A stretch of 64,000 nt of DNA, taken from assembly GCF_016432865.1 (NCBI RefSeq), contig NC_067398.1:177134001-177198000 (forward strand). Reading direction: 5' to 3'. Below the pieces are notes generated by a model that saw only the letters and a program-made list of their open reading frames with translations, searched no databases and was not told the DNA's origin. Shown here in pieces: positions 18,134-63,561 of this stretch (the stretch's first letter is position 1; every line of letters begins with the position of its first letter). The stretch is from Antechinus flavipes. Lineage: Eukaryota. Made by a program: the position numbers and the translations under genes.

Positions 18134-19481
18134 CCATGTTTCCCTGATAATAAGACACTGTCTTATTATTTTTTTGGACAGAAAAACACCAGAGGGCTTA
18201 TTTTCAGGGGAGGGCTTATTTTAATGAACATTGACAGCAATTTTAATAAACAGGTAAATGTGAACAAAAAAAGTACCTTTATTCAATAATGATCACGTCA
18301 TCTTCTTCAACGACATTGTCATAAGTGTCCATACTCTGAATTCTGTCCTGGATGTCTTACGCCTCTATTTCCTTCAGAAGAAGTGGACCCAATCTGTCAT
18401 GTCCAGCAATATAGCTCTCTTTAAATGAACGTGTCTTGTCCAGGTAACCTGCTCGTAGTGCCTTGGTGACACAGCTGTCAGTAATTTTATCCCATGACTT
18501 CTTCACCCAAGTCACGACTTCTTGCAGACAGGGCTTTACAAAGTTTCCATGCTGATTTCTTTCCATTCTATTTTCAATGTAGTCATTGACTTCCATGCAC
18601 AAATGGTCCTTGAATGGCTTGTTTATTGCAATATCAAGGGTGTGGAGATAGGCAGTTATTCCTGCAGGAATCGTTACTTGATCTATTCTTCTCTCTGCAA
18701 GGAAGTTCTTCATTTCTTTAGCGTGGTGAGTGCTGGCTGAATCCCAGATTATCAGACCTCTTTGGTTACCTTGCATAACAAGTGGCAGCATTAAATCAAC
18801 CCACTTTCTTATAACGGCTTGTGTATACCAGGCTTTTTCGGTTTCAAGAACGTAAATGCCTGATACATGTTCAATCTTATCTTTCTTGCTCTTACTGATG
18901 ATTAGAGGTGTGGCTTTCTTTCCATCCAAAATGCCAAAACACAGGTGACCCATGCAGACAGAATAATAAAATTATGACCATCAGTCCTTCTTTTTACTCC
19001 ATCATGCCCCTCAATAATGTTTTTACCCCATCATGCTCCCTGAGTGCTCCTTCTATTCTCCATGATGCCCCCTGAGTTCTTCTTTTATCCTCCATCATGC
19101 CCCTTTTATCCTCCATCATGCCCCCTGACTCCCGCTTACATACCGGGTTTTTATGTTGTCCTGCCTCAGCTCTCCTCCGCGGCACTGCTCTCAATGGCGC
19201 CAGCAAGCAAATCACTGGGGAAGAACAGGATGACGTGCTCACTGCTGCAGCTCTGATTGGATGCAGCTCGGAGCACGGCGTGCATTTCACCTGGGGTGTG
19301 TGTGTGGGGGGGACGGTGTATACAGAGGGTACCATAATGTAGCATGTAGCGCAGGGGATCACCTTCACTACAGTAGCAATCCCAATAGGGCTTATTTTCA
19401 GGGGAGGGCTTATTTTAGAGGAATCTTACACAGTAAGGGGAGGGCTTATTTTCGGGAGGTCTTATTATCGGGAAAACACGG
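18134..19481 (-). mobile_element. pogo/Tigger-superfamily DNA transposon, internally deleted, 1348 bp
   Basis: 23-bp TIRs CCATGTTTCCCTGATAATAAGAC / GTCTTATTATCGGGAAAACACGG. TA TSD at 18132-18133 and 19482-19483. Five AGGGCTTATTTT subterminal repeats. Removing it restores the L1 motif gaattgatac(ta)agtgaagtgag. Confidence 0.95.
18357..18953 (-). pseudogene. pogo DDE transposase C-terminal fragment (DDE_1-like, POGK/Passer-like)
   Basis: 198 open codons containing LIIWDSASTH, IPAGITAYLHTLDIAINKPFK and NFVKPCLQEVVTWV. 35 residues lie between the second and third catalytic Asp. The N-terminal HTH and first Asp are missing. Confidence 0.9.
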
Positions 19482-19930: not shown

Positions 19931-20366
19931 AGAAATAGTGTTGCTGGTGGTAGTACTGTTGATAGTGATAATAATGATGAACAATTCAACTATATATGTA
20001 GAAGATGTTATCAAACACTTCTTTTGGAAAATTGTAAGATGTCTCTTCAGTTCAACTTTCTGGATGTATATTTTTTTCTTTAGCAGCTTCTTAGCTGAAG
20101 GTTAGAAGAAAGCCAGGAAAAATTTTTTATCCCTGTTCCCAGTGTCCACAACCAAAGCTCAATGTATTGATTCTTTCTTCCAAGATATCTAGTCCTGAAG
20201 ATTTAAGCATACAGAATATGATGGAAAAGGATAGAAGTGAAGATTTTGCAGAACTTTGTTTACCATGAGATACACATGGTCAATAAATGCTTTTTCATTA
20301 TACCTAAAGAAATGAAATTGTTTTCTTTAACTTCCTTAGAGTTTCCTTTTTCATTCAGATATAAAT

Positions 20367-20540
20367 NNNNNNNNNNNNNNNNNNNNNNNNNNNNNNNNNN
20401 NNNNNNNNNNNNNNNNNNNNNNNNNNNNNNNNNNNNNNNNNNNNNNNNNNNNNNNNNNNNNNNNNNNNNNNNNNNNNNNNNNNNNNNNNNNNNNNNNNNN
20501 NNNNNNNNNNNNNNNNNNNNNNNNNNNNNNNNNNNNNNNN
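20367..20540. other. Assembly gap
   Basis: 174 N. Confidence 1.
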
Positions 20541-21279
20541 TATTAATAGATACGGATACATGTTTTCAGAGGAAGGTACCAGATTACACCTTCACAAAAT
20601 TCCTTCCCTGGACAATAGCTACTAGGCAATACTACTGAAATTAGGACCAGGGGCTTGGAAGGTATTCCTATTATCAGTGCACTTGAGTACTTGGTCATGG
20701 GCCAATCTCGCTATAATGCAAAATGATTCAAACAACTGTCTCTGACCTCAAGGAACTTACATTCTAAGAGTGAAGGCAGCATGCTGACTTGTAAGGAATT
20801 ATGCAATTCACACATGATAAAAGCAAAGTAACTTTTTGAAGTCTCTGTTAGCTGGGAGGGTAAGAAAATGTCACATGTAAGATGTGACACTGGAATTGAC
20901 CTTTGAAGGAAAACAGGAATCCTTTGAGGCATTGGTAAGAAAGGAATATATATCAGGAATTGAAGGAAGATAAAGAAGTTGGAGATGGAATGTTATGAAG
21001 AATTTAAAAGTAGACTGGTTTGGCTGGAGAATATTCAGAAGAATATTCTTAAAAGGTAGGTTGGAATGCTATTATGGAGGGTTTTTAATGTCAGAGGAGT
21101 TCATAGTTTGTCCTAGAGTAAACAAAAAACTCCTGTAGTTTCTTGAGCAGGGAAGTGTTATAGTCCAGACTTGTACTTTTAAAAAATATTGACTTTCTAA
21201 TTGTGTGGAAGATTCTTCATATAAGGAAGAGACTAGAGATAGGGTGACCAAGTTGGTGAAATGTCAATATTAATAGTTA

Positions 21280-21480
21280 ACATTTATATAACACTCTAAA
21301 ATTTTCAAATGTTTTTAAAATATAGTTTCATATAATCTCCATAAGAACTCTGGGAGGTAGATATTATTATTCCCTTTATAGATGAAGAAACTGAAGCAAA
21401 TCAAAGTAAAGTGACTTGCCCAGAGTCGCACAGTAAATATTTGAGTTTAGATTGAAACTTGGGCCTTCCTAACTGCAGTT
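21280..21480 (-). mobile_element. MIR SINE
   Basis: ctctgggaggtagatattattattccctttatagatgaagaaactgaagc...gtgacttgcccagagtcgcacag. Confidence 0.8.
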
Positions 21481-22129
21481 CCAGTTATTTTATCCATTTT
21501 GCCACTAAGGTGAGAGGTATTAAAGACTTGAACTAAGACATCAGCTATGTGAGCACAAAGAAGAGTTTGAATGTGAAAGATGTTGTAGAAATAAAATGGA
21601 TGAGATTGGACAACTGAATGAATGAAGATATGGGGCCAGTTAGAGTGAAAAGTTGTTGCAGGTGTTATAGGAGAAGGATTCCCTGTAGATTTAAAAGACC
21701 TCATTGGCCCTTGCATATCTTGGCATTGTTTCCTGGATATTTAAAAACATAAAAATCTCACCCATGTAGAATCAGATACCTCCAACTTGGTAGATGTCAG
21801 ATCACACAAAATGGTACAGATGAAATGCATTTCCATATGAAATCATGGGTGGGGAGAATCTGGAGAATTTAAATTCCATTGTAAGCTTGTTACCTATCTC
21901 TTCCACATTAGGACAAAATCTTTTGATTACAATTCAATGATTCTGTATACTCATTTTGTCTTAAAATTAAATCTAAACTAACAAAATACTGGTGATAGGC
22001 CTATCCCAAATACAATATTATGGGCTTGATAAATGCTTTTTTTTATTTCAATACAAGAGAATTAGGGGAAAAAAGCAAAAAGCAAGCAAACAAAAAACCA
22101 CCAAACAAGCAAACATATCATCCCTGCTA

Positions 22130-22950
22130 TCTCTAGTTCCTTACTATTTACCTTGCAATCTGTCTTTGGGCCCTACCACTCAAATGAAATTGTTCTGTCC
22201 AAGATACCTTAGTACTTTAGTCCTAATTATTAAATCAAATTATCTTTAATCTCTTCTAAATTCTTATCTCTCATTTTTCTACATTGTTTATTGCTTGCTC
22301 ACCTCCCCCATACTTTCACCTACTTTGATTTTTATTATACTTTCTTTAATTCTCCAATTTATCTGAGTGCTTGTTCTTGATCTTATTTGCTGATTCACTT
22401 TTTCTAGTCCCTAAAATGCAGACTCTCCAGGATTGTATCCTGAACTCTCTTTTCTTATTTCTGTATAGTATCTCCATTGTATATATTATCAGCCTATAGA
22501 TTCAATTATCATTTCTATGTAGATGTTGATGTAGGTAGATGTAGATGACTTCCAAATCTTTATGTCTAAGCCTAATCTTTCTTTGTAACTCCAATCTCTT
22601 GTTGCCAAGTACATATTATATACACCATTTGGATATATTTTTAGAATCTCCAAATCAGCATCTTAACAAAACAAAACAAAACAAAATAAAACACTAATCA
22701 TCTTCTCTTCTAAATCCATTCCTCCTAAGAAACTTTTCTATATTTTAGGGAAGCCACCATCCCCAGTCATCTATGTTTATGCATATAGAGCTTATACACT
22801 TTTATATATGTGTTTTTATACACTTAAAGTCAACTTTGATTCTACCCCATCTCTCATCCTTGTAACCCAATAAGTTGAATTGTGAATTCAATCTCAAGCA
22901 TATCATTTGCTGCCATACTAAATCAGGCTCCCATCACCTTTCACCAAGAT
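22130..22950 (+). mobile_element. L2 LINE fragment
   Basis: Pyrimidine-rich L2 body (ttcaattatcatttctatgtagatg...acttccaaatctttatgtctaagcc, YADD region). Confidence 0.7.
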
Positions 22951-22960
22951 AGTGGTAATA

Positions 22961-23460
22961 GTTTTTTGTTTGTTTATTTTCAGTTTTATTTATCCTATTC
23001 TGAATTTAAGAAATAAAACAAATCTAAAACATTGAATAAACAAAACATTTGAATATGTAATAAAGTTAAGATGTCATTTTCTTTTTCTTCTTTTTTTCTT
23101 CCCTCTCTCTCCTGTTCATTAAACAAAATTATCATTATATGTCTCTATTATACACAGAGACACACACACACACACATACACATATATGTATGTAAAAGCA
23201 TTGTGTATATACATCTATTTATCAATTCTTCCTCTGGATGCAGATGCATCTTCCTTCATATGTCCTTTGTACTTAATTTGGCTATTTATACTAGTCAAAA
23301 TTACTTAGTCACTTGAAGTTATTCTTAAAACAATATTGTTCAATTGGTTCTATTCATTTTATACTTTATTATGGTTTGTGAGAATATCCACGTTTTTCTA
23401 GCTTTCTAATTCCCCTCCTTGTTTGCCATCTTTTCTCTCTCCAATCCAACCTCTGGACAA
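22961..23460 (-). mobile_element. Old L1 3' UTR fragment
   Basis: Antisense marsupial L1 3' UTR-like sequence starting at a T-rich tail. Confidence 0.55.
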
Positions 23461-23476
23461 TTACCAAAACAATCTT

Positions 23477-23636
23477 TTTTTTTTTTTTTTTTTTTTTGGC
23501 TGAGGCAATTGGGGTTAAATGACTTGCCAAGAATCACACAGCTAGGAAGTGTTAAGTGTCTGCAAACAAATTTGAACTCAGGTCCCTCTGATTTCAGGGC
23601 TTGTGCTCTATCCACTGTGCCACCTCACTGTCCCCT
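23477..23636 (-). mobile_element. Young short tRNA-derived SINE (WSINE1-like)
   Basis: Poly-T tail, body ggctgaggcaattggggttaaatgacttgcc...ctctatccactgtgccacc. Perfect 12-bp TSD CAAAACAATCTT at 23465-23476 and 23637-23648. Confidence 0.9.
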
Positions 23637-23749
23637 CAAAACAATCTTAAGGTACAAATCTATAATATTCTCTGGCTCAAAAATCTTTAATACTTCCTCA
23701 TTATCTTTAAGATAAAATCCAAACTCTTCAATCTGGCATTTGAGGTGGC

Positions 23750-24456
23750 CCCTGAGAAGTCATGGAGGATGTGATCGCCCCTTTTTTGGTGTTTTCACCT
23801 CCCTTCCTCAGAAGTTAGGGAGGGCATGACCACCTGTGTTCTAAAACAAAAGAAAGCTGGAGATGTAGAGGGCCAGAACTCTGAAAAGGTGTACTTGAAT
23901 CAAGCACAGCAGGGTGCTTATAGTTAAAGCACCTACTCAGTGTTCTCTAAACATATACTTAAAAATGTGATGTAATGATGTAATCCAGGGGTCCTCAAAC
24001 TTTTTAAATAAGGGGCCAGTTTACTGTCCCTCAGACTGTTGGAGGGCCGGACTATAGTAAAAACAAAAACTTTGTTTTGTGGGCCTTTAAATAAAGAAAC
24101 TTCATAGCCCTGGGTGAGGGGGATAATCATCCTCAGCTGGTGCATCTGGCCTGCAGGTGCTAGTTTGAGGACCCCGATTGTAATCACTCTAGTTGGCATA
24201 TACTTAATGTGATAAGGTCATGTATTAGTTCCATAGTTGGCACATGCTCAGTGTGCTGTAGCGATGTAATTATACTGAGGTATTTAAGGGAGTCTCATTC
24301 ACAGACACAGAGAAGATTCGAGACTCCAGATTCCAGACTCCGGACTCCATTTTTGACCAGCCTCGTGGTGGCTGTCCTGCCTTCATCATTCCTCCATTAA
24401 GATCAAGAACTTGGGCTAATCCTGAGGTCCTCCAGAGAGCTAGTCTGGACATTACA
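23750..24456 (+). mobile_element. ERV solo LTR interrupted by hAT MITE
   Basis: Ends ...ggacattaCA (24456). TATA-like ggtatttaag near 24280 and a gactcc-repeat R region. Left boundary and TSD not resolved. Confidence 0.65.
23986..24177 (+). mobile_element. Non-autonomous hAT MITE (~190 bp, OposCharlie1/OC1-like)
   Basis: TIR CAGGGGTCCTCAAACT / AGTTTGAGGACCCC. 8-bp TSD atgtaatc (23978-23985) / ttgtaatc (24178-24185). Closely similar to the copy at 61042. Confidence 0.85.
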
Positions 24457-24985
24457 CTTTCCATTTGGGGAATAGTTAGGAGAGAGGAGAATGATATATA
24501 TAAAACCAGCAAGCATAAGGTAAAATATGACTGAAGAGCTATGACTTGTCTGGTATTGACAAGAATTGTAAAAAATAGAGATGAGGATGGTAGATATCCC
24601 TGACATAGAGGACAGTCTTTATAACTAGTTAGAGAAAAGAAAGGAATGATTTCTAGGAAGAAAGAGTCATTCCCTTTGTTAGCGTCAATAAAAAGATGTA
24701 AGGAAATAAAGCTGGACCCTAACTTTTGACTAAACTGCAATTTTTGTCTATACCAGACAAGTTTTAATTCTTCACTTATACTTTATCTTATACTGTTTAC
24801 AGCATCCTCTCTTTCCCAACAATATCATGAACTTGTGGGGAAAGTTTTATGCTTTTATAAATTTTTTACGTCTACAAATGCTGAGAACAACAAATGCTTA
24901 TGGGGGGTTAATAGGGCAAAAGGAAACTTCTTGGGATTCCTATCCCAAATATTACAATGAATTACTGAGATCTGAATTCATCAGG

Positions 24986-25586
24986 TGTAAGGGTCAAAGG
25001 ACAAAGGTCACCCTCAGTGCAAACAGGAAGTGAACAAGCAAGAAATGCTTGAAATTCCCTGAAGTAATTTCTGTGAGCAGAGACAGTCTTGTGGGTGGGA
25101 ACTCTAGCCATATTGAGATTTCTTTGTTAATAGGAGTGTCTCCTTCTATGATTGGCTGTGTGTGTGACCTCGTAGACCCTATTTAAGCTCTATGGAGGAG
25201 GAAGTCTCTCTCTTTCTCTCTTTTACCTGGTGTTCACCTGGGAGTCAACAAGAGGTCAGGGCAGAATGTGAATAAAAAACTTTAAGCTTGCATATGGCTA
25301 TTCTTGAGTGTGCTACTGGTTTTTAAACTACAGTTTATAAAACTGTAGCCAGAGACCTCTGAAAACCTCAGAAAGAGGTAAACTGGGTAAATTTGGTTTA
25401 TATAATGCAAAAGAGAGTGGCCAGAGGTTTCTCTGAGGGCCTGGGAATTAAGAGAGATTGGCAATGTAAAATGCTTGACCCTGGGCATTCACTTCATTTG
25501 CGAACACCCTAATACTACTCTGCATTTTATTTGCTTGTTCACTTCCTGTTTGCACTGAGCGTGACCTTTGTCCTTTGATCCTTACA
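24986..25586 (+). mobile_element. 601-bp TG...CA element with 56-bp terminal inverted repeats and LTR-like interior
   Basis: 24986-25041 matches the reverse complement of 25531-25586 at 54/56. Flanks ATCAGG (24980-24985) / ATCAAG (25587-25592). ATTGG 25151, TATTTAA 25180, AATAAA 25271. Confidence 0.8.
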
Positions 25587-26899
25587 ATCAAGTTTCACCA
25601 CATTGCACTCATTGCTTGTTGCTTAGTTTGTATCTCAAAATATTAGACTCTTAGTTTATATCTCAAAATATTAGGTTCTCAAATGCATATGTATTATTTT
25701 ACTTTTCAAAAAGAGACAAAAATGGTTTTTACAAAAGAGGAACACAAATATTCATATGTCTGGGAGTGTAGTTGAAATATAATAAGTTGAAATAGTAAGT
25801 GTATAATATTTGTCATGTAGAGATATGCTGAGCAGTGTCCACTTTTCCCATGTAACATTTAAAATACATTTCCAAGAAAACTGTAAGACTGATACTTTCA
25901 ATCTTCATGTTTTGCTAATCTTTAAATTATTATTAAGCTACATTTACTACCAACATGAACATTATGATCAATCGGTATTTATTAAATGCTTACAATGTCC
26001 TGCGCAGTGGATATAAATAAAAAAAGAATGAAACAGCCTAGGATTCTTGAAGAACTGGATTATAATTCCCATTTTACAGAGGAAGATGCTGAAAGATAAA
26101 GTTTCTTCACTCTGTTAATTCACTGACTGACAAGAATAAAAGACAGACATTATTTTACAAGTTGAATGCAATGCTTTTCAGTCTAGCAATTCCCAGGACA
26201 CCTTATAACATTTTCTTCCTAGTATTTCAGATCAGAATCAGTACAACAACCCACTCAGCTCTATAAATGCTGGTAGGTTACCACATCTCTTTTCCCTTCC
26301 TGCCACAGACTGAAAGAAAAGAAAAAAAAAAGTTTTTTTCTGCAGAAAGAAAAGTCTTGAAATCACCATAAAGGGCCACTAAACCCTTAAAATATTACTT
26401 CTTATCTTAGGTGTAAGCATTAAGCACACTTACTTCTGCCCAGATAGACACATTGGGGGAAAGTGATGGATTCCCCTTTTTGTCCAATAGAGATATTCAC
26501 TGATTCTTTATGCTACAGGCCCAGTGGAAGCCATAGATTTTGCTCCCACTCCCTCTTTTTTGAAATTCCTGTTTTCTCTCAATATTCAGCTCAGATATTA
26601 CCTTCACAAGAGGGTATCCTGATTTCCCAACAGCTGAACTTTCCCCAATGGTTAGATTCATTTTACTCTGTATGAATCAGGTATGTGTCCATGTCTTTAC
26701 ATTCTTTCTTCCACATTAGTGTGTAAATTCCTTCAGGGCATAGTGTATTTGTGTGTGTATTTGTGTGTGTGTGTTTGCCTTTTTTGGATCCTCACAGGGC
26801 CTGGCATAGAACTAGGGCTTACAAATATTTGTTGATAGATTGTTTAGGATATACAGTTCTGATTGGTGAGTGTTTTCATTAGATCCCCACTAATTCCTG

Positions 26900-27125
26900 G
26901 TCATTTCCTTTCCATAATAACTAGGTATTTACATAGTGTTTTAAAGTCTGCAAAAAGATTTACAAATATCATCTCATTTATTATGCCCACTTTATAGATG
27001 ATGAAACTGGGGTAGTCAGAAGTTAAATGACTTGCCTGGCATAACACAGCTAATACATGTCTCAGGCTGGATTTGAATTCCTTTCTTCCAAACTCCAGGT
27101 CCAACACACTACCCACTTGAGCAGC
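26900..27125 (-). mobile_element. MIR SINE
   Basis: cccactttatagatgatgaaactggggtagtcagaagttaaatgacttgcctggc...ggatttgaattcc. Confidence 0.8.
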
Positions 27126-29069
27126 TAGTTGGCTACATTTTAATGTAATCAGGCCATCATTTTAATTTTTACCCCTACTCTCATGCCTAATGGACAAACT
27201 TGGACTCTGCCCCTGATAAGTAAGTTTTTATTTATCATGGAACCAGGCCTACTAACCAATTCCTATCTATCTGCTGTATACATACTCCCCTTTCCAGTTT
27301 CCCTATATCTGTTATCTTCCCCTATTAAAATGTAAGCTTCTTGAAAGCAGTGACTATCTTACTTGTTTCTTTATATAATCTCATCATTTTATGGTGCCTC
27401 TTATACAGTAAGTGATAAATAAATGGCTTATTTATATACTGAATTCAATATAAATTGGCATTTGTTGCTATTTATTTTGCACTTGTTAAACTGAAAACCA
27501 ATGACAAATCAGAATGATGACTTGTTGACTTATTCACTTCTCTTGACTTAAATCTCTGACTATACCAAAAAGAAAGCATTCCTAGTATTATATACATTTT
27601 AGGTTGACAAGGCAGGGGACACACTTCTATCCCTTCTTCCATGAACATGTCTGCACAGAAGTTATAGAAACATTAAAAGAACTTCAGTCTAATTAATAAT
27701 TAGTGATAATAATTAGCACTAATATGGCACTTAAAACTTTGCAAAGTATTATACATATACTATCTCATTTAATCCTCACAAAACCCCTAAGAGTTAAGTG
27801 ATGAGGTTGGGGTGTAGCACCAAATGTTGGGATTGGGTAGCATTTCTTAGTTCAAATATAAAATTCAAAGTGTAGGACACTGTAAAGAATTCAAAATGGT
27901 TTTCTTGTTGCCTAAAATTACTTTTATTTATGAGAAGAGGTTACAGACAAAATGAAGAGGTAGGAGAGATACCAGGAGTGGTAACTATGAAATAGATTTG
28001 GGAGAGCTTATGTAGTTAGCAATAACAAGTGTTTTAGCAATGACAATGGAAAAGATAAGTTTCCCGTGGAGTTCACAATTTATCAGGAAAAAACGAATAG
28101 GCCATGAGATGGGAGTAATGCCATTTACTGCCAGGTTAAAACCACAGAAGAGTTTAGTATCCTAAAAGAGTTAGTTAGCTATAGCAAGGAGAAAGATACC
28201 ATGAGCTATGGAGATGGGGATGAGAAAAAAGACTCCTCAGCAGCACAGAGTGGAGGGCCAAACCCAGTAGGGATTCAGCAAAGATGAAATAGCTCATAGG
28301 TAGATGTATAGAGAAAATTTAATCTTTAAGGTTTTGATGTCATAACTTGGCTTTCTGATTAGATACAGAAAAGTGGGGTTTCCCAAGACCTGTGCAGAGG
28401 TGGGACTGTACAGCTGAGCTCATTCCCATCAGTGTCCTTAACTGCTTGCCTCCAGAATCATTATAATCTTATAGTATTTCAGGCTTTCTCTGCCAAATCC
28501 ATTTAGTTACCCAGGACCTCATCATTTGGTGATATTATTATCCTTATACTAAAGATGAGGAAACTAAAGTAGACAAAAGTTGGATGACTTGTCCAGAGCA
28601 ACATAGCTAGTAAGCATTGAAAATCAACTGTTCCTGACTGCAAATCCTAATATTTACCAAGCTGGATGCCTAGGATATAGGGCATAGATGAGGCAGGTCC
28701 AAGTTATGGAAAATCTTGAAAGTCAGAATAAGAAATTTCAACTTAATGAGAAGCAATAGTAAATCATTGAATATCCTTGAGCAAATAGTGTTTTAGAGTA
28801 AGAGAATCCATTAAGAATAGTCTGACATCAGTATAAAGGGGGGGTTGAAGGCATTTATGAATGTCTGAATTAGTGAAATATCTATTATAAGTTATTCAGA
28901 CTGGTTAAAATCATCATAGCATGTTATAAATGACTATTTTGATCATCTTTATATTGAGGTCTGCTTTTGCAAAAGTTCTTGTAAGCCAGCAATAGTTTCC
29001 CTTCCCCTCTTCCAATTCGGTGCTTTTGCCTTCAAGGCTTTTCCTGATCCAGGTAGCATTGCTCTTCCT

Positions 29070-29600
29070 CTATTAATCAATAAGTATTTACTCTATATCA
29101 AACACTGTGCTAAACACCAGGGATACAAAGAAAAAACAAAACAAAACAGAAAAGCCTTTGCCCTCAAGTAGTTTACACTCCAAAGGGAGGGACAATTAAC
29201 CTAAATATGTACATACAAGATAAATACAGAAGAAATGGGAAGTTACCTTAGAGTTATATACTGCGGAACCTAAAACCTAGAAAGACATTTTTGCTGGTGG
29301 TGCAAGTAAGTCAGAGATTCTTGGGAGGGGAGGGAGATAAGGAGGGAGAGCAGAGGAGATATGGAGGTCAGCCAGTAACATGAAGGTGAGAGATAGTAAG
29401 ACATGAATGAGGAAAGAAGAAGGCTAGTATGACTTGGATTTTAGGATGTATGGATAGAGGAGTGTAACGTGTGATTAAATTGGAAAGCCAGAGGCTGGTT
29501 AAGATATGAACAACTTAAAAAATCAAATAGGGCAATTTATATTTAATACTAGAAGTCATGGGGAATCCTTGGACTCTCTGGAACAGAGAAAGAGGTGGTG
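29070..29600 (-). mobile_element. L2 fragment
   Basis: ttaatcaataagtatttactctatatcaaacactgtgctaaacaccagggatacaaag antisense L2 3' end, plus body. Confidence 0.65.
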
Positions 29601-29604
29601 ACAT

Positions 29605-30254
29605 TGAAGAGGGGACCCTGAAACTCTAAAAATCCTTAAAAGAGAAAATCTCCTTCAACTCAGGGAGGGACCTCACCCCAAGGGATAAAAAGTTTCATCC
29701 TTGTTATCTGGGTGGTGTCAGCTCAGTCCTGAAACTCATTGAATTCAATTCAAATTCCAGCTCAAACTGAAAGCCATTGATGAGCCAACTTGGAACTCCA
29801 CCCATGAGTTCCTTTCAGCTAAAGCTCCCATTATAAAAGAGCCAAACTAAAACCCTCTCTTTGTAGAGGTTCCAAACATGCCAGCTATGCTATGCCATGC
29901 TATGCCAAGGAACCTCTGTCTACTGAAATACTCTTTCCAGAGCCATCCTCTCTTTATCCTCACCTATTTCCTAACCAGACTTTATGCCTCGCTATCAGGA
30001 TTTCTAACCTTACTTTCAATCCCCATAATAAACCCTTTTATCAATCAAGGTTTTCAGGTCTGTAAATTCTTTTACAGAGAACATCTGTGCCACCAGAAGG
30101 GAGTCTCCAAAACTCCCTACCCTTGTGCAGAATCCCAAGGGGTTGCAGTGGAGCCAAATCTATCCATTTGGTTCCCTGAACCCTGAACCTTCCACTAGAC
30201 CTTATCATTTAACCCCTTGACCACCAGAAATTCTAATCTATTTTTGGTTTCCTA
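29605..30254 (+). mobile_element. ERV LTR running into assembly gap
   Basis: Starts TGAAGAGGGG, with TATAAAA at 29832-29838 and AATAAA at 30027-30032. 3' end hidden by N run. Confidence 0.75.
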
Positions 30255-61041: not shown

Positions 61042-61232
61042 CAGGGGTCCTCAAACTTTTTAAATAGGAGCCAGTTCACTGTCCCTCAGACTATTGGAGG
61101 GCTGGACTACAGTAACAACAAAAACTTTGTTTTGTGGGCCTTTAAATAAAGAAACTTCATAGCTCTAGGTGAGGAGGATAAACGTCCTCAGCTGCTGCAT
61201 CTGGCCCACGGGCCATAGTTTGAGGACCCCTG
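61042..61232 (+). mobile_element. Non-autonomous hAT MITE (OC1-like), second copy
   Basis: Perfect 16-bp TIRs CAGGGGTCCTCAAACT / AGTTTGAGGACCCCTG. Flanks tgtttgac (61034-61041) / tgtatgac (61231-61238, overlapping the terminal TG). Confidence 0.9.
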
Positions 61233-61699: not shown

Positions 61700-62227
61700 T
61701 GTTGGAATCTGTACAAACTGCTAACTAATTAGAGTTGATCTAATCTTACAAGAAGATGTTTTGGGCCAGAACCTGAAACAAGGTACTAAGAAGAACTAAT
61801 GAGTACAATGCTTGTGTTTACATCTTTACTCATTGGAGTTCACAAGTATGCCAGCTTCACAAAGTAAACTTTGTAACTTGGTGAATTCACACCTCCCTTA
61901 AAGCTCTTTGGGCCAGAGAGCACTATGGGAGAAAACCCATAATCCCTTTCTCTCGTATCCCACAATTCCTCCCTCTTGTATAAAAGAAACAGACAGAGGC
62001 TCTCAGTCAGATTTTTCACCGGAATGACATGAAGAGTGGAGCTGACTGGAGGCTGAAGAAAGCAGAGGCAGAGGCTGAAGGACAAAACCTTTGGATTTGG
62101 CGACATTCGGAGGGAGCTCTTGGAACCAAGCAGAGAGATAGACCTCTAAGCTAACCGGGCTATATTGGAGATAATAAAAGATCTGAATTTTTATCACCTG
62201 GATGCATTTGGGAAGAAGATCACCACA
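61700..62227 (+). mobile_element. 5' LTR of class II (betaretrovirus-like/ERVK) provirus, 528 bp
   Basis: Starts TGTTGG immediately after L1 ...gataaat. TATAAAA 61979-61985, AATAAA 62173-62178, ends CCACA followed by ttt and a PBS. Confidence 0.9.
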
Positions 62228-62230
62228 TTT

Positions 62231-62270
62231 TGGCGCCTGAATAGGGACTTGAACCCTGGACCCTCAGATT
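62231..62270 (+). promoter_or_regulatory. PBS 1: 40-nt complement of the tRNA-Lys(UUU) 3' half
   Basis: TGGCGCCTGAATAGGGACTTGAACCCTGGACCCTCAGATT, 38/40 to the recalled vertebrate tRNA-Lys3 positions 76 to 37. Confidence 0.9.
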
Positions 62271-62299
62271 TGAACCCCAACATTTGAACTCCCACATTT

Positions 62300-62318
62300 T
62301 GGTGCCCAACATGGGGCT
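62300..62318 (+). promoter_or_regulatory. PBS 2: tRNA-Lys(CUU) type
   Basis: TGGTGCCCAACATGGGGCT versus TGGCGCCCAACGTGGGGCT; both mismatches are CpG transitions. Confidence 0.85.
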
Positions 62319-62421
62319 AACAGACCCCTCAGTGGATTTCAGTGGAAAAGCTCCGATCCTGATTCAAGTGGAAAAGCCTTTGATCCTGATTCAGTGGAAA
62401 AGTCTTCTTGACCCAGAAATT

Positions 62422-62430
62422 CGGGTGAGT
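62422..62430 (+). promoter_or_regulatory. Probable proviral major splice donor
   Basis: CGG|GTGAGT between the PBS and the gag ATG. Confidence 0.6.
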
Positions 62431-62478
62431 GCAACAAAGAAATTTTGTTAGAAGAGTTAAAGTAGAATTTCAGCTAAG

Positions 62479-62948
62479 ATGGGACAGATATTTAGAAAAC
62501 AGCCTATTTCTGTTCAAGGAAAATGTTTAGAGAACATTGTCAAAGTTATGGAAAAGCCAAGGTTTAATTATAAATTTGGAGCAGATCACTGAACTTTTAG
62601 AAATTGTTAAATACATATGTCCTTGGTTCTCTACAGAAAAGGAATTAGATTTAGACAAATGGAAATTAATCGGAGAAAAACTGGGTGAATGCTGCAGATC
62701 TAATTCATCTTCTAATTCAAACTCAATGCAGTGGACATTAGAAAGAGAGGCTCTTTTTTATAATAGAAATGGACCTGACTCAATTTCCAAAGACATAATT
62801 AATACATATAATGTAATACAATTGGCTATAAGAAGTTATTTAAGTGATAGAATGAAGAAAAGGAAAGTTCAGGAGGAAGAAGTGCCAACTTTACTAGGTG
62901 AAAAGGAGCAAGAATCGGATAAGAATGGAGTTAAGTACAATTCTGAGT
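62479..62948 (+). pseudogene. gag: Betaretrovirus-like Gag matrix region, frameshifted and truncated
   Basis: MGQ start (62479). After a +1 frameshift it reads EQITELLEIVKYICPWFS..KELDLDKWKLIGEKL, the betaretroviral MA CPWF...W motif. Joins L1 at about 62949. Confidence 0.85.
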
Positions 62949-62961
62949 ATGGTCAAAGGAT

Positions 62962-63561
62962 ATGAACAGAAAATTCTCAGATGAAGAAATTGAAACTATT
63001 TCTAGCCATATAAAAAGATGCTACAAGTCATTATTAATCAGAGAAATGCAAATTAAGACAACATTGAGATACCACTACACACCTGTCAGATTGGCTAGAA
63101 TGACAGGGAAAGATAATGTGGAATGTTGGAGGAGATGTGGGAAAACAGGGACACTGATACATTGTTGGTGGAATTGTGAATACATCCAGCCATTCTGGAG
63201 AGCAATTTGGAACTATGCTCAAAAAGTTATCAAACTGTGCATACCCTTTGACCCTGCAGTGTTACTACTGGGCTTATATCCCAAAGAGATCTTAAAGAAG
63301 GGAAAAAGACCTGTATGTGCTAGAATGTTTGTGGCAGCCCTCTTTGTAGTCACCAGAAACTGGAAACTGAGTGGATGCCCATCAATTGGAGAATGGCTGA
63401 ATAAATTGTGGTGTATGAACGTTATGGAATATTATTGTTCTGTAAGAAATGACCAGCAGGATGATTTCAGAAATGCCTGGAGAGACTTACATGAACTGAT
63501 GCTGAGTGAAATGAGCAGGACCAGGAGATCATTTATATACTTCAACAACAATACTATATGA
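62962..63561 (+). pseudogene. L1 ORF2 C-terminal (Cys-rich) fragment, 199 open codons
   Basis: ORF track: CWRRCGKTGTLIHCWWNC, PFDPAVLLLGLYPKE, MFVAALFVV. Confidence 0.9.

Follow-up and report, generated by a model that had tools for sequence, protein, structure and literature searches.

The element at 24986-25586 of the window (the whole stretch of 64,000 nucleotides that was analysed) raises the question of how an LTR-like sequence came to be bounded by long terminal inverted repeats. Recomputation confirmed the structure described in the initial annotation: a 601-bp element, TGTAAGG...CCTTACA, with TG...CA ends, carries two inverted arms of 56 nt each (24986-25041 and 25531-25586) that match at 54 of 56 positions (96% complementary), and it is flanked by ATCAGG (24980-24985) and ATCAAG (25587-25592). 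The two arm mismatches lie at 24993/25579 and 25012/25560, and the resulting arm divergence is 3.6% (95% interval 0.4-12%). Exact inverted matching extends over 29 nt at its longest, whereas 500 shuffles gave no more than 18 nt, and the fold z-score of the element is -13.8 (20 shuffles). The flanking hexamers are identical at five of six bases, and no match was obtained in the 4-bp and 5-bp duplication registers. The composition-based chance of a flank match of at least 5/6 is 0.009, and 968 of 61,582 window positions (1.6%) satisfy a 4/4, 5/5 or 5/6 duplication rule; the 6-bp target duplication is probably real, though imperfect. The CCAAT-, TATA- and AATAAA-like signals claimed for the interior were also found, on the plus strand and in the order of an LTR: ATTGG (reverse CCAAT) at 25151, TATTTAA at 25180 and AATAAA at 25271. 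The description of the element as an LTR with two U3-type ends was right as anatomy; the initial annotation had missed the inverted 3' terminus at 25465-25529, a feature central to understanding the structure. The features of the element are as follows.

24980-24985, plus strand: left copy (ATCAGG) of the probable 6-bp target duplication, a 5/6 match to 25587-25592.
24986-25041, plus strand: left arm, the usual 5' (U3-type) start of the LTR family, from pieces beginning at 24983-24986 and from arm comparison.
25038-25052, plus strand: short homology where the arm meets the interior; here GCAA-G-AAATGC is like 25461-25474 and 25043-25052 equals 25469-25478 (10/10).
25042-25464, plus strand: interior of the LTR, present in many copies (16-430 times the flank depth) and containing the reverse CCAAT, TATA-like and AATAAA motifs.
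25465-25529, minus strand: 3' (U5-type) terminus of the family, inverted, from the joints in other copies, an 8-bp inverted repeat and a predicted hairpin.
25530, no strand: junction base between the inverted terminus and the right arm, at single-copy depth in four of four genomes.
25531-25586, minus strand: right arm, a second, inverted copy of the first 56 bases of the LTR, joined to the interior at this locus only.
25587-25592, plus strand: right copy (ATCAAG) of the probable 6-bp target duplication, from flank comparison.

Outside the arms, the two halves of the element showed no homology to each other (global score 4 against a shuffle mean of 6.7), indicating that it does not consist of two full LTRs joined tail to tail. 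No further copy was found within the 64-kb window. An Rfam search of 20000-30000 and a tRNA scan of the whole window gave 0 matches each, as did a search of viral and metagenome contigs with an exact 25-mer of the arm, which is a weak test for a mammalian repeat.

Judged by its repeats, the window would come from a mammal, probably a dasyurid marsupial. A search of sequencing runs gave 20 holders among the 24 runs listed, representing seven organisms and with no RNA run among them on record. Contigs of four of these 24 runs (X1, X7, X8 and X11, from organisms A, D, E and G and from three studies; B, C and F were left out) were aligned to 24806-25765 at a likeness threshold of 80%, with 93-96% of the data of each run included. 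The family evidence derives from the 15 of 79 joints, 24 of 717 loose ends and 32 of 2,521 pieces that were listed, and summed contig depth served as a rough guide only to copy number. The interval 24986-25529 belongs to a multi-copy LTR-like family of about 540 bp, with a depth 10-430 times that of the flank. The same range of 10-430 times was obtained over 24998-25541 in all four runs, and the right arm reached 0.8-12 times, a small excess to be expected where ordinary 5' ends can align with both arms. Of the 32 pieces listed, five (records 2, 10, 11, 26 and 27) begin at 24983-24986 and continue into other DNA, so that the left end of the element is an end of the family; other family copies have this left end in common and are without the right arm. 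At the opposite side, 25444-25474 is joined in other copies to 25521-25529 on opposite strands (seven of the 15 joint rows listed, with all four runs represented), and the loose ends behind 25527 (14, 10 and 13 contigs in X1, X7 and X8) resemble by eye the reverse complement of 25440-25467. The loose ends before 25469 (10, 11 and 8 contigs in X1, X7 and X11) are long and have an agreement of only 0.47-0.51, a poor value that indicates unrelated flanks. Together, the joints and loose ends of these other copies establish 25465-25529 as the normal 3' terminus of the family, which is inverted in the present element.

The family is heterogeneous in several respects. Some copies stop aligning at 25463-25465, where they have another and apparently shorter end, others match only from 25022-25024 onward, and these alternative ends and starts indicate that subfamilies exist. 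In each of the four runs, 25126-25189 and 25414-25477 reach 130-430 times the depth of the flank and stand well above the remaining LTR; these two segments are modules common to a much larger repeat group. On the minus strand, CCAAT is followed about 55 bases on by TATATAA (25399-25404, 25457-25461), a promoter-like pair reversed in the LTR that may be due to chance.

The label "LTR" is used because of the ends, the signals and the copy pattern, no PBS or internal region having been seen for the family. On these features, the family is likely to be the LTR of an endogenous retrovirus (ERV) and the element a solo LTR copy. The initial annotation could not assign the element to a standard class; one can now be given tentatively, as a solo LTR that probably belongs to ERV class II, because of the probable 6-bp duplication. 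Target duplications measure 6 bp in ERV2, 4 bp in ERV1 and 5 bp in ERV3, with lengths inconsistent within classes, according to part of the text of PMC4299795, and class II RT frames are given as the commonest ERV type of the Tasmanian devil in sections of PMC4408412. Like class II (betaretrovirus-like, ERV2) solo LTRs, the element has TG...CA ends, a family length of about 540 bp, the same signal order, many dispersed copies and a probable 6-bp duplication; it differs from them in the inverted 3' terminus and in the added inverted first 56 bases. The dasyurid ERV1 LTRs of Gallus et al. 2015 (types 1a, 1b and 2; 226 copies of 589-711 nt, dasyurid-wide, with 4-nt duplications, as given in sections of PMC4408412) are also solo and of similar length, but the 4-bp register matched at 0/4 positions here and the sequences of Supplementary Data Set 2 were unlike the element in a by-eye comparison. 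Neither this element nor an LTR family bearing long terminal inverted repeats was found in the titles and opening abstract lines of the literature searched, in which subscription papers and Repbase Reports were sparsely covered; the family may well already be named in Repbase or Dfam.

The two-armed form was then located in the related genomes. Position 25530 is covered in all four by one contig at single-copy depth, each at the same locus (30.1, 15.5, 36 and 31.1, against 27.9, 13.5, 32.8 and 31.9 in the left flank), and the contigs crossing it (records 8, 24, 32 and 16) run into the right flank of the element as present in the window. The left junction is bridged by records 17, 25 and 9 and also by record 1, which reaches only 23 letters into the element. 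Both element-flank junctions are present in all four genomes, and the whole element is not spanned by any single contig of any run. The contigs of X8 and X11 additionally bridge 25474/25475 in the same orientation as the window. The bridging contigs bear substitutions of their own; compared with the window, the orthologous pieces are 0.8, 2.1, 3.4 and 5.5% divergent. Since 25530 is single-copy at the same locus in all four genomes, the two-armed form represents one event; it is one locus, arising from one old event inherited by all four organisms, and has no family of its own. The initial annotation had reasoned that, if no other two-armed copy existed, a local inversion would be the explanation, and the contigs of the related genomes bore this out. 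The orthologous empty site that it had proposed to inspect in related genomes was seen in none of the four, and neither was an unrearranged LTR at the locus (among the 15 of 79 joints listed). The divergence of 5.5% from organism G corresponds to about 6-12 Myr (per lineage or pairwise) at the WSINE1 rate of 0.0045 per Myr, taken from an excerpt of PMC3403934; the rearrangement is several million years old or more.

The right arm is most likely a copy of the same LTR's own start, because the arms are far more alike than most of the family copies listed and because orthologues are without one of the mismatches. Among the 24 interior pieces listed, 22 differ from the window by 12-18%, and the other two (3.5 and 6.7%) may be orthologues. 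At a divergence of 15%, the probability of two or fewer mismatches in 56 positions is 0.007. The orthologues of X8 and X11 have C at 25579, which matches the left arm, so that one arm mismatch is gone; that of X11 (organism G) also has C at 25530, a base that pairs with 25042 as well as with 25466. In each run, 15-31 aligned records are at least 99% alike, and close paralogues may exist.

Short homology was found at every junction: a hairpin-forming terminus, a 10-base match and five common terminal bases. The inverted terminus is bounded by an 8-bp inverted repeat (25467-25474/25522-25529). The hairpin predicted for it, with the terminus at the hairpin base, has -7.9 kcal/mol as DNA (z -2.5, with 4 of 200 shuffles as good, a modest result) and -19 as RNA (z -3.7, 0 of 200 shuffles as good). 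Beside the arm, 25043-25052 and 25469-25478 are identical at 10 of 10 bases, and, with every start in 25060-25459 scored, the 11-mer 25038-25048 has its best place at 25461-25474. The LTR up to 25464 contains the five initial letters of the terminus at one site only, its own start (24986); two more such sites are in the flank, 290 and 420 bases away.

Based on these results, we propose that the right arm probably arose once, after integration, when host template switching copied the LTR's own start by folding back. We infer the timing, and the state that preceded the event from the paralogues. Two routes could have led to the present arrangement. In route 1, which we favour, the 3' terminus would have paired with the inverted repeat about 50 bases upstream, forming the predicted hairpin, and the folded terminus would have primed synthesis back through the LTR, with roughly 480 bases copied. 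On reaching the LTR start, synthesis would then have switched back to the normal template via the five bases common to both LTR ends. A return at this point would have kept the old 6-bp target duplication and made the arm end exactly at TG/CA without an integrase. The palindrome of about 1 kb would finally have lost the interior of one arm by deletion between the homologies 25038-25048 and 25461-25474. Long palindromes are unstable. On the minus strand, the element shows 56 bases of LTR start, then, after the missing body, the LTR terminus, followed by the body and the start in inverted form; this is exactly the order predicted by this route, and such a long fold-back followed by deletion is a serious possibility, close to an even chance. 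In route 2, the terminus would have paired with the 10-base match 25043-25052, copied only 56 bases and returned via the same five terminal letters, and the 47-base loop would have flipped in a separate event; a short copy of this kind with a loop flip is possible, at a chance of about one in three. Both routes yield an identical sequence, and each leaves one 4-base match over, TTGA in route 1 and GCAA in route 2. The product has been inherited passively, and any function would be putative at most.

Events of this type have precedents. According to parts of PMC7954356, template switches of order 3-2-1-4 produce inverted repeats, are a main source of single ones in ape genomes and range over tens to hundreds of bases. 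Fold-back inversions in yeast are reported to arise at single-stranded DNA hairpins and to be stabilised by secondary rearrangements (PMC7467729), and microhomology fold-back insertions at yeast breaks are mostly 5-34 bp (PMC11724301). The element resembles such template-switch mutations (four-point, 3-2-1-4) and fold-back inversions in its inverted nearby copy, its short-homology junctions, the hairpin of the first switch and the secondary rearrangement, as far as these are described in the same three sources. It differs from them in needing three junctions rather than two, and its copied stretch stops exactly at the LTR terminus, thereby mimicking a TIR transposon with its target duplication. 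The events documented in those parts of PMC11724301 and PMC7954356 are also mostly shorter than the roughly 480 bases of route 1. ODIRA, which generates inverted triplications via an origin-bearing intermediate according to part of PMC4689423, was considered as well and is not needed here.

An origin of both U3-type ends before or during integration is a different account of the same arms. Viral DNA folded back on itself, or two viral DNAs each giving a U3 end, would have been inserted by retroviral integrase, and repair through the short inverted repeat would have closed the centre. Integrase is able to join two U3 ends in vitro. Such an origin would agree with the exact stop of both arms at TG/CA and the 6-bp duplication directly outside; a single infection would also be expected to give arms identical at origin, and all four genomes show the final form and none an intermediate. 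Part of PMC2857682 describes aberrant integrations in which an end was damaged. However, the five bases common to both LTR ends explain the exact end equally well, a folded-back strand would have one free duplex end only, so that extra steps would be needed, and a literature search that included the available part of PMC2857682 found no described case. On this evidence we consider an origin before or during integration unlikely. A version as a germ-line fossil, in which viral DNA was primed by its own U5-terminus hairpin, or a single integration brought together two viral DNAs, and the product integrated with a normal 6-bp duplication, appears improbable to the same degree. If integrase did join both ends, the element would provide in-vivo evidence, from the germ line, of two U3 ends integrating together, and would represent a natural path by which an LTR becomes a MITE-shaped unit bounded by TIRs, preserved here at a stage before any spread.

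The remaining explanations were raised in the initial annotation. Fusion of two opposite LTRs comes close in form, in that the minus strand from 25586 to 25465 corresponds to an LTR with an internal deletion that brings start and terminus together and the plus strand to an LTR without its end, and the family is abundant. Nevertheless, both arms most likely come from one LTR: they are 96% alike, with a still better match in the orthologues, and 22 of the 24 interior pieces listed reach only 82-88%, although later gene conversion between the arms could mask their independence. Moreover, independent insertions should not have one common outer target duplication (5/6). It is therefore very unlikely that two family members inserted nearby in opposite orientation and that a deletion or recombination event at the short inverted repeat then united them. 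MITEs and integrase-type DNA transposons (Ginger, Polinton) have TG...CA ends, long TIRs and a target duplication, and the perfect-looking TIRs and target duplication of the element (54/56, at this copy only) would suit a low-copy MITE-like element moved as DNA by an integrase-type enzyme. Against this, the TIR is no family trait, the interior and left arm are LTR-like, and the single contig over 25530 places the two-armed form at one locus in all four genomes. The right arm also has only 0.8-12 times the flank depth, versus 16-430 times for the interior, and the lack of a second copy in the window and, as a weak test, of the 25-mer in viral and metagenome contigs point the same way; the mobile-element interpretation did not survive these comparisons and is extremely improbable. 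Misassembly of a repeat in a draft genome might be suspected from the N gaps present in the window, but in four of four runs (three studies) independent contigs with their own substitutions cross the right-arm junction into the same flank, and those of X8 and X11 bridge 25474/25475 in the window orientation. An artefact is thus scarcely credible.

Host template switching within an integrated LTR is the explanation that we prefer, and the element is probably a one-off mutation in one repeat copy, an old accident and not a new kind of mobile element. It constitutes a presence marker common to at least four related genomes. It is also a clean example of how template switching makes a solo LTR resemble a TIR DNA transposon, which calls for caution with signature-based MITE finders; a high false-positive rate is ascribed to these programs in part of PMC9025800.

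Several other repeats were observed in the window. An older inverted-repeat element lies 190 bp to the left, at 24512-24794; its 57-nt arms are 81% complementary and 169 nt apart, and it may be a decayed MITE. Two copies of a short element, 88% alike, are found at 24002-24175 and 61057-61230, which is a candidate hAT-type MITE resembling the OC1 non-autonomous elements. Directly after the first of these copies, 24179-24456 is a TG...CA LTR-like piece of about 280 bp. The element showed no blastn likeness (E below 0.05) to this piece or to the other LTR-like piece of the window. The latter is part of 61702-62965, where it is followed by a PBS-like site beginning TGGCGCC and by a frame with Pfam Gag_p10 (E 4e-12); a 6-bp duplication and the rest of the provirus are absent there. 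This segment lies inside an L1 ORF2 3' fragment whose halves seem by eye to resume in register, with about one base repeated. On the minus strand, 18357-18971 is an open frame of 204 codons with Pfam DDE_1 (E 1e-16), which identifies it as a pogo/Tc1-mariner-like transposase fragment. Finally, the right flank of the element contains a 28-bp tandem duplication (89%) at 25622-25677.
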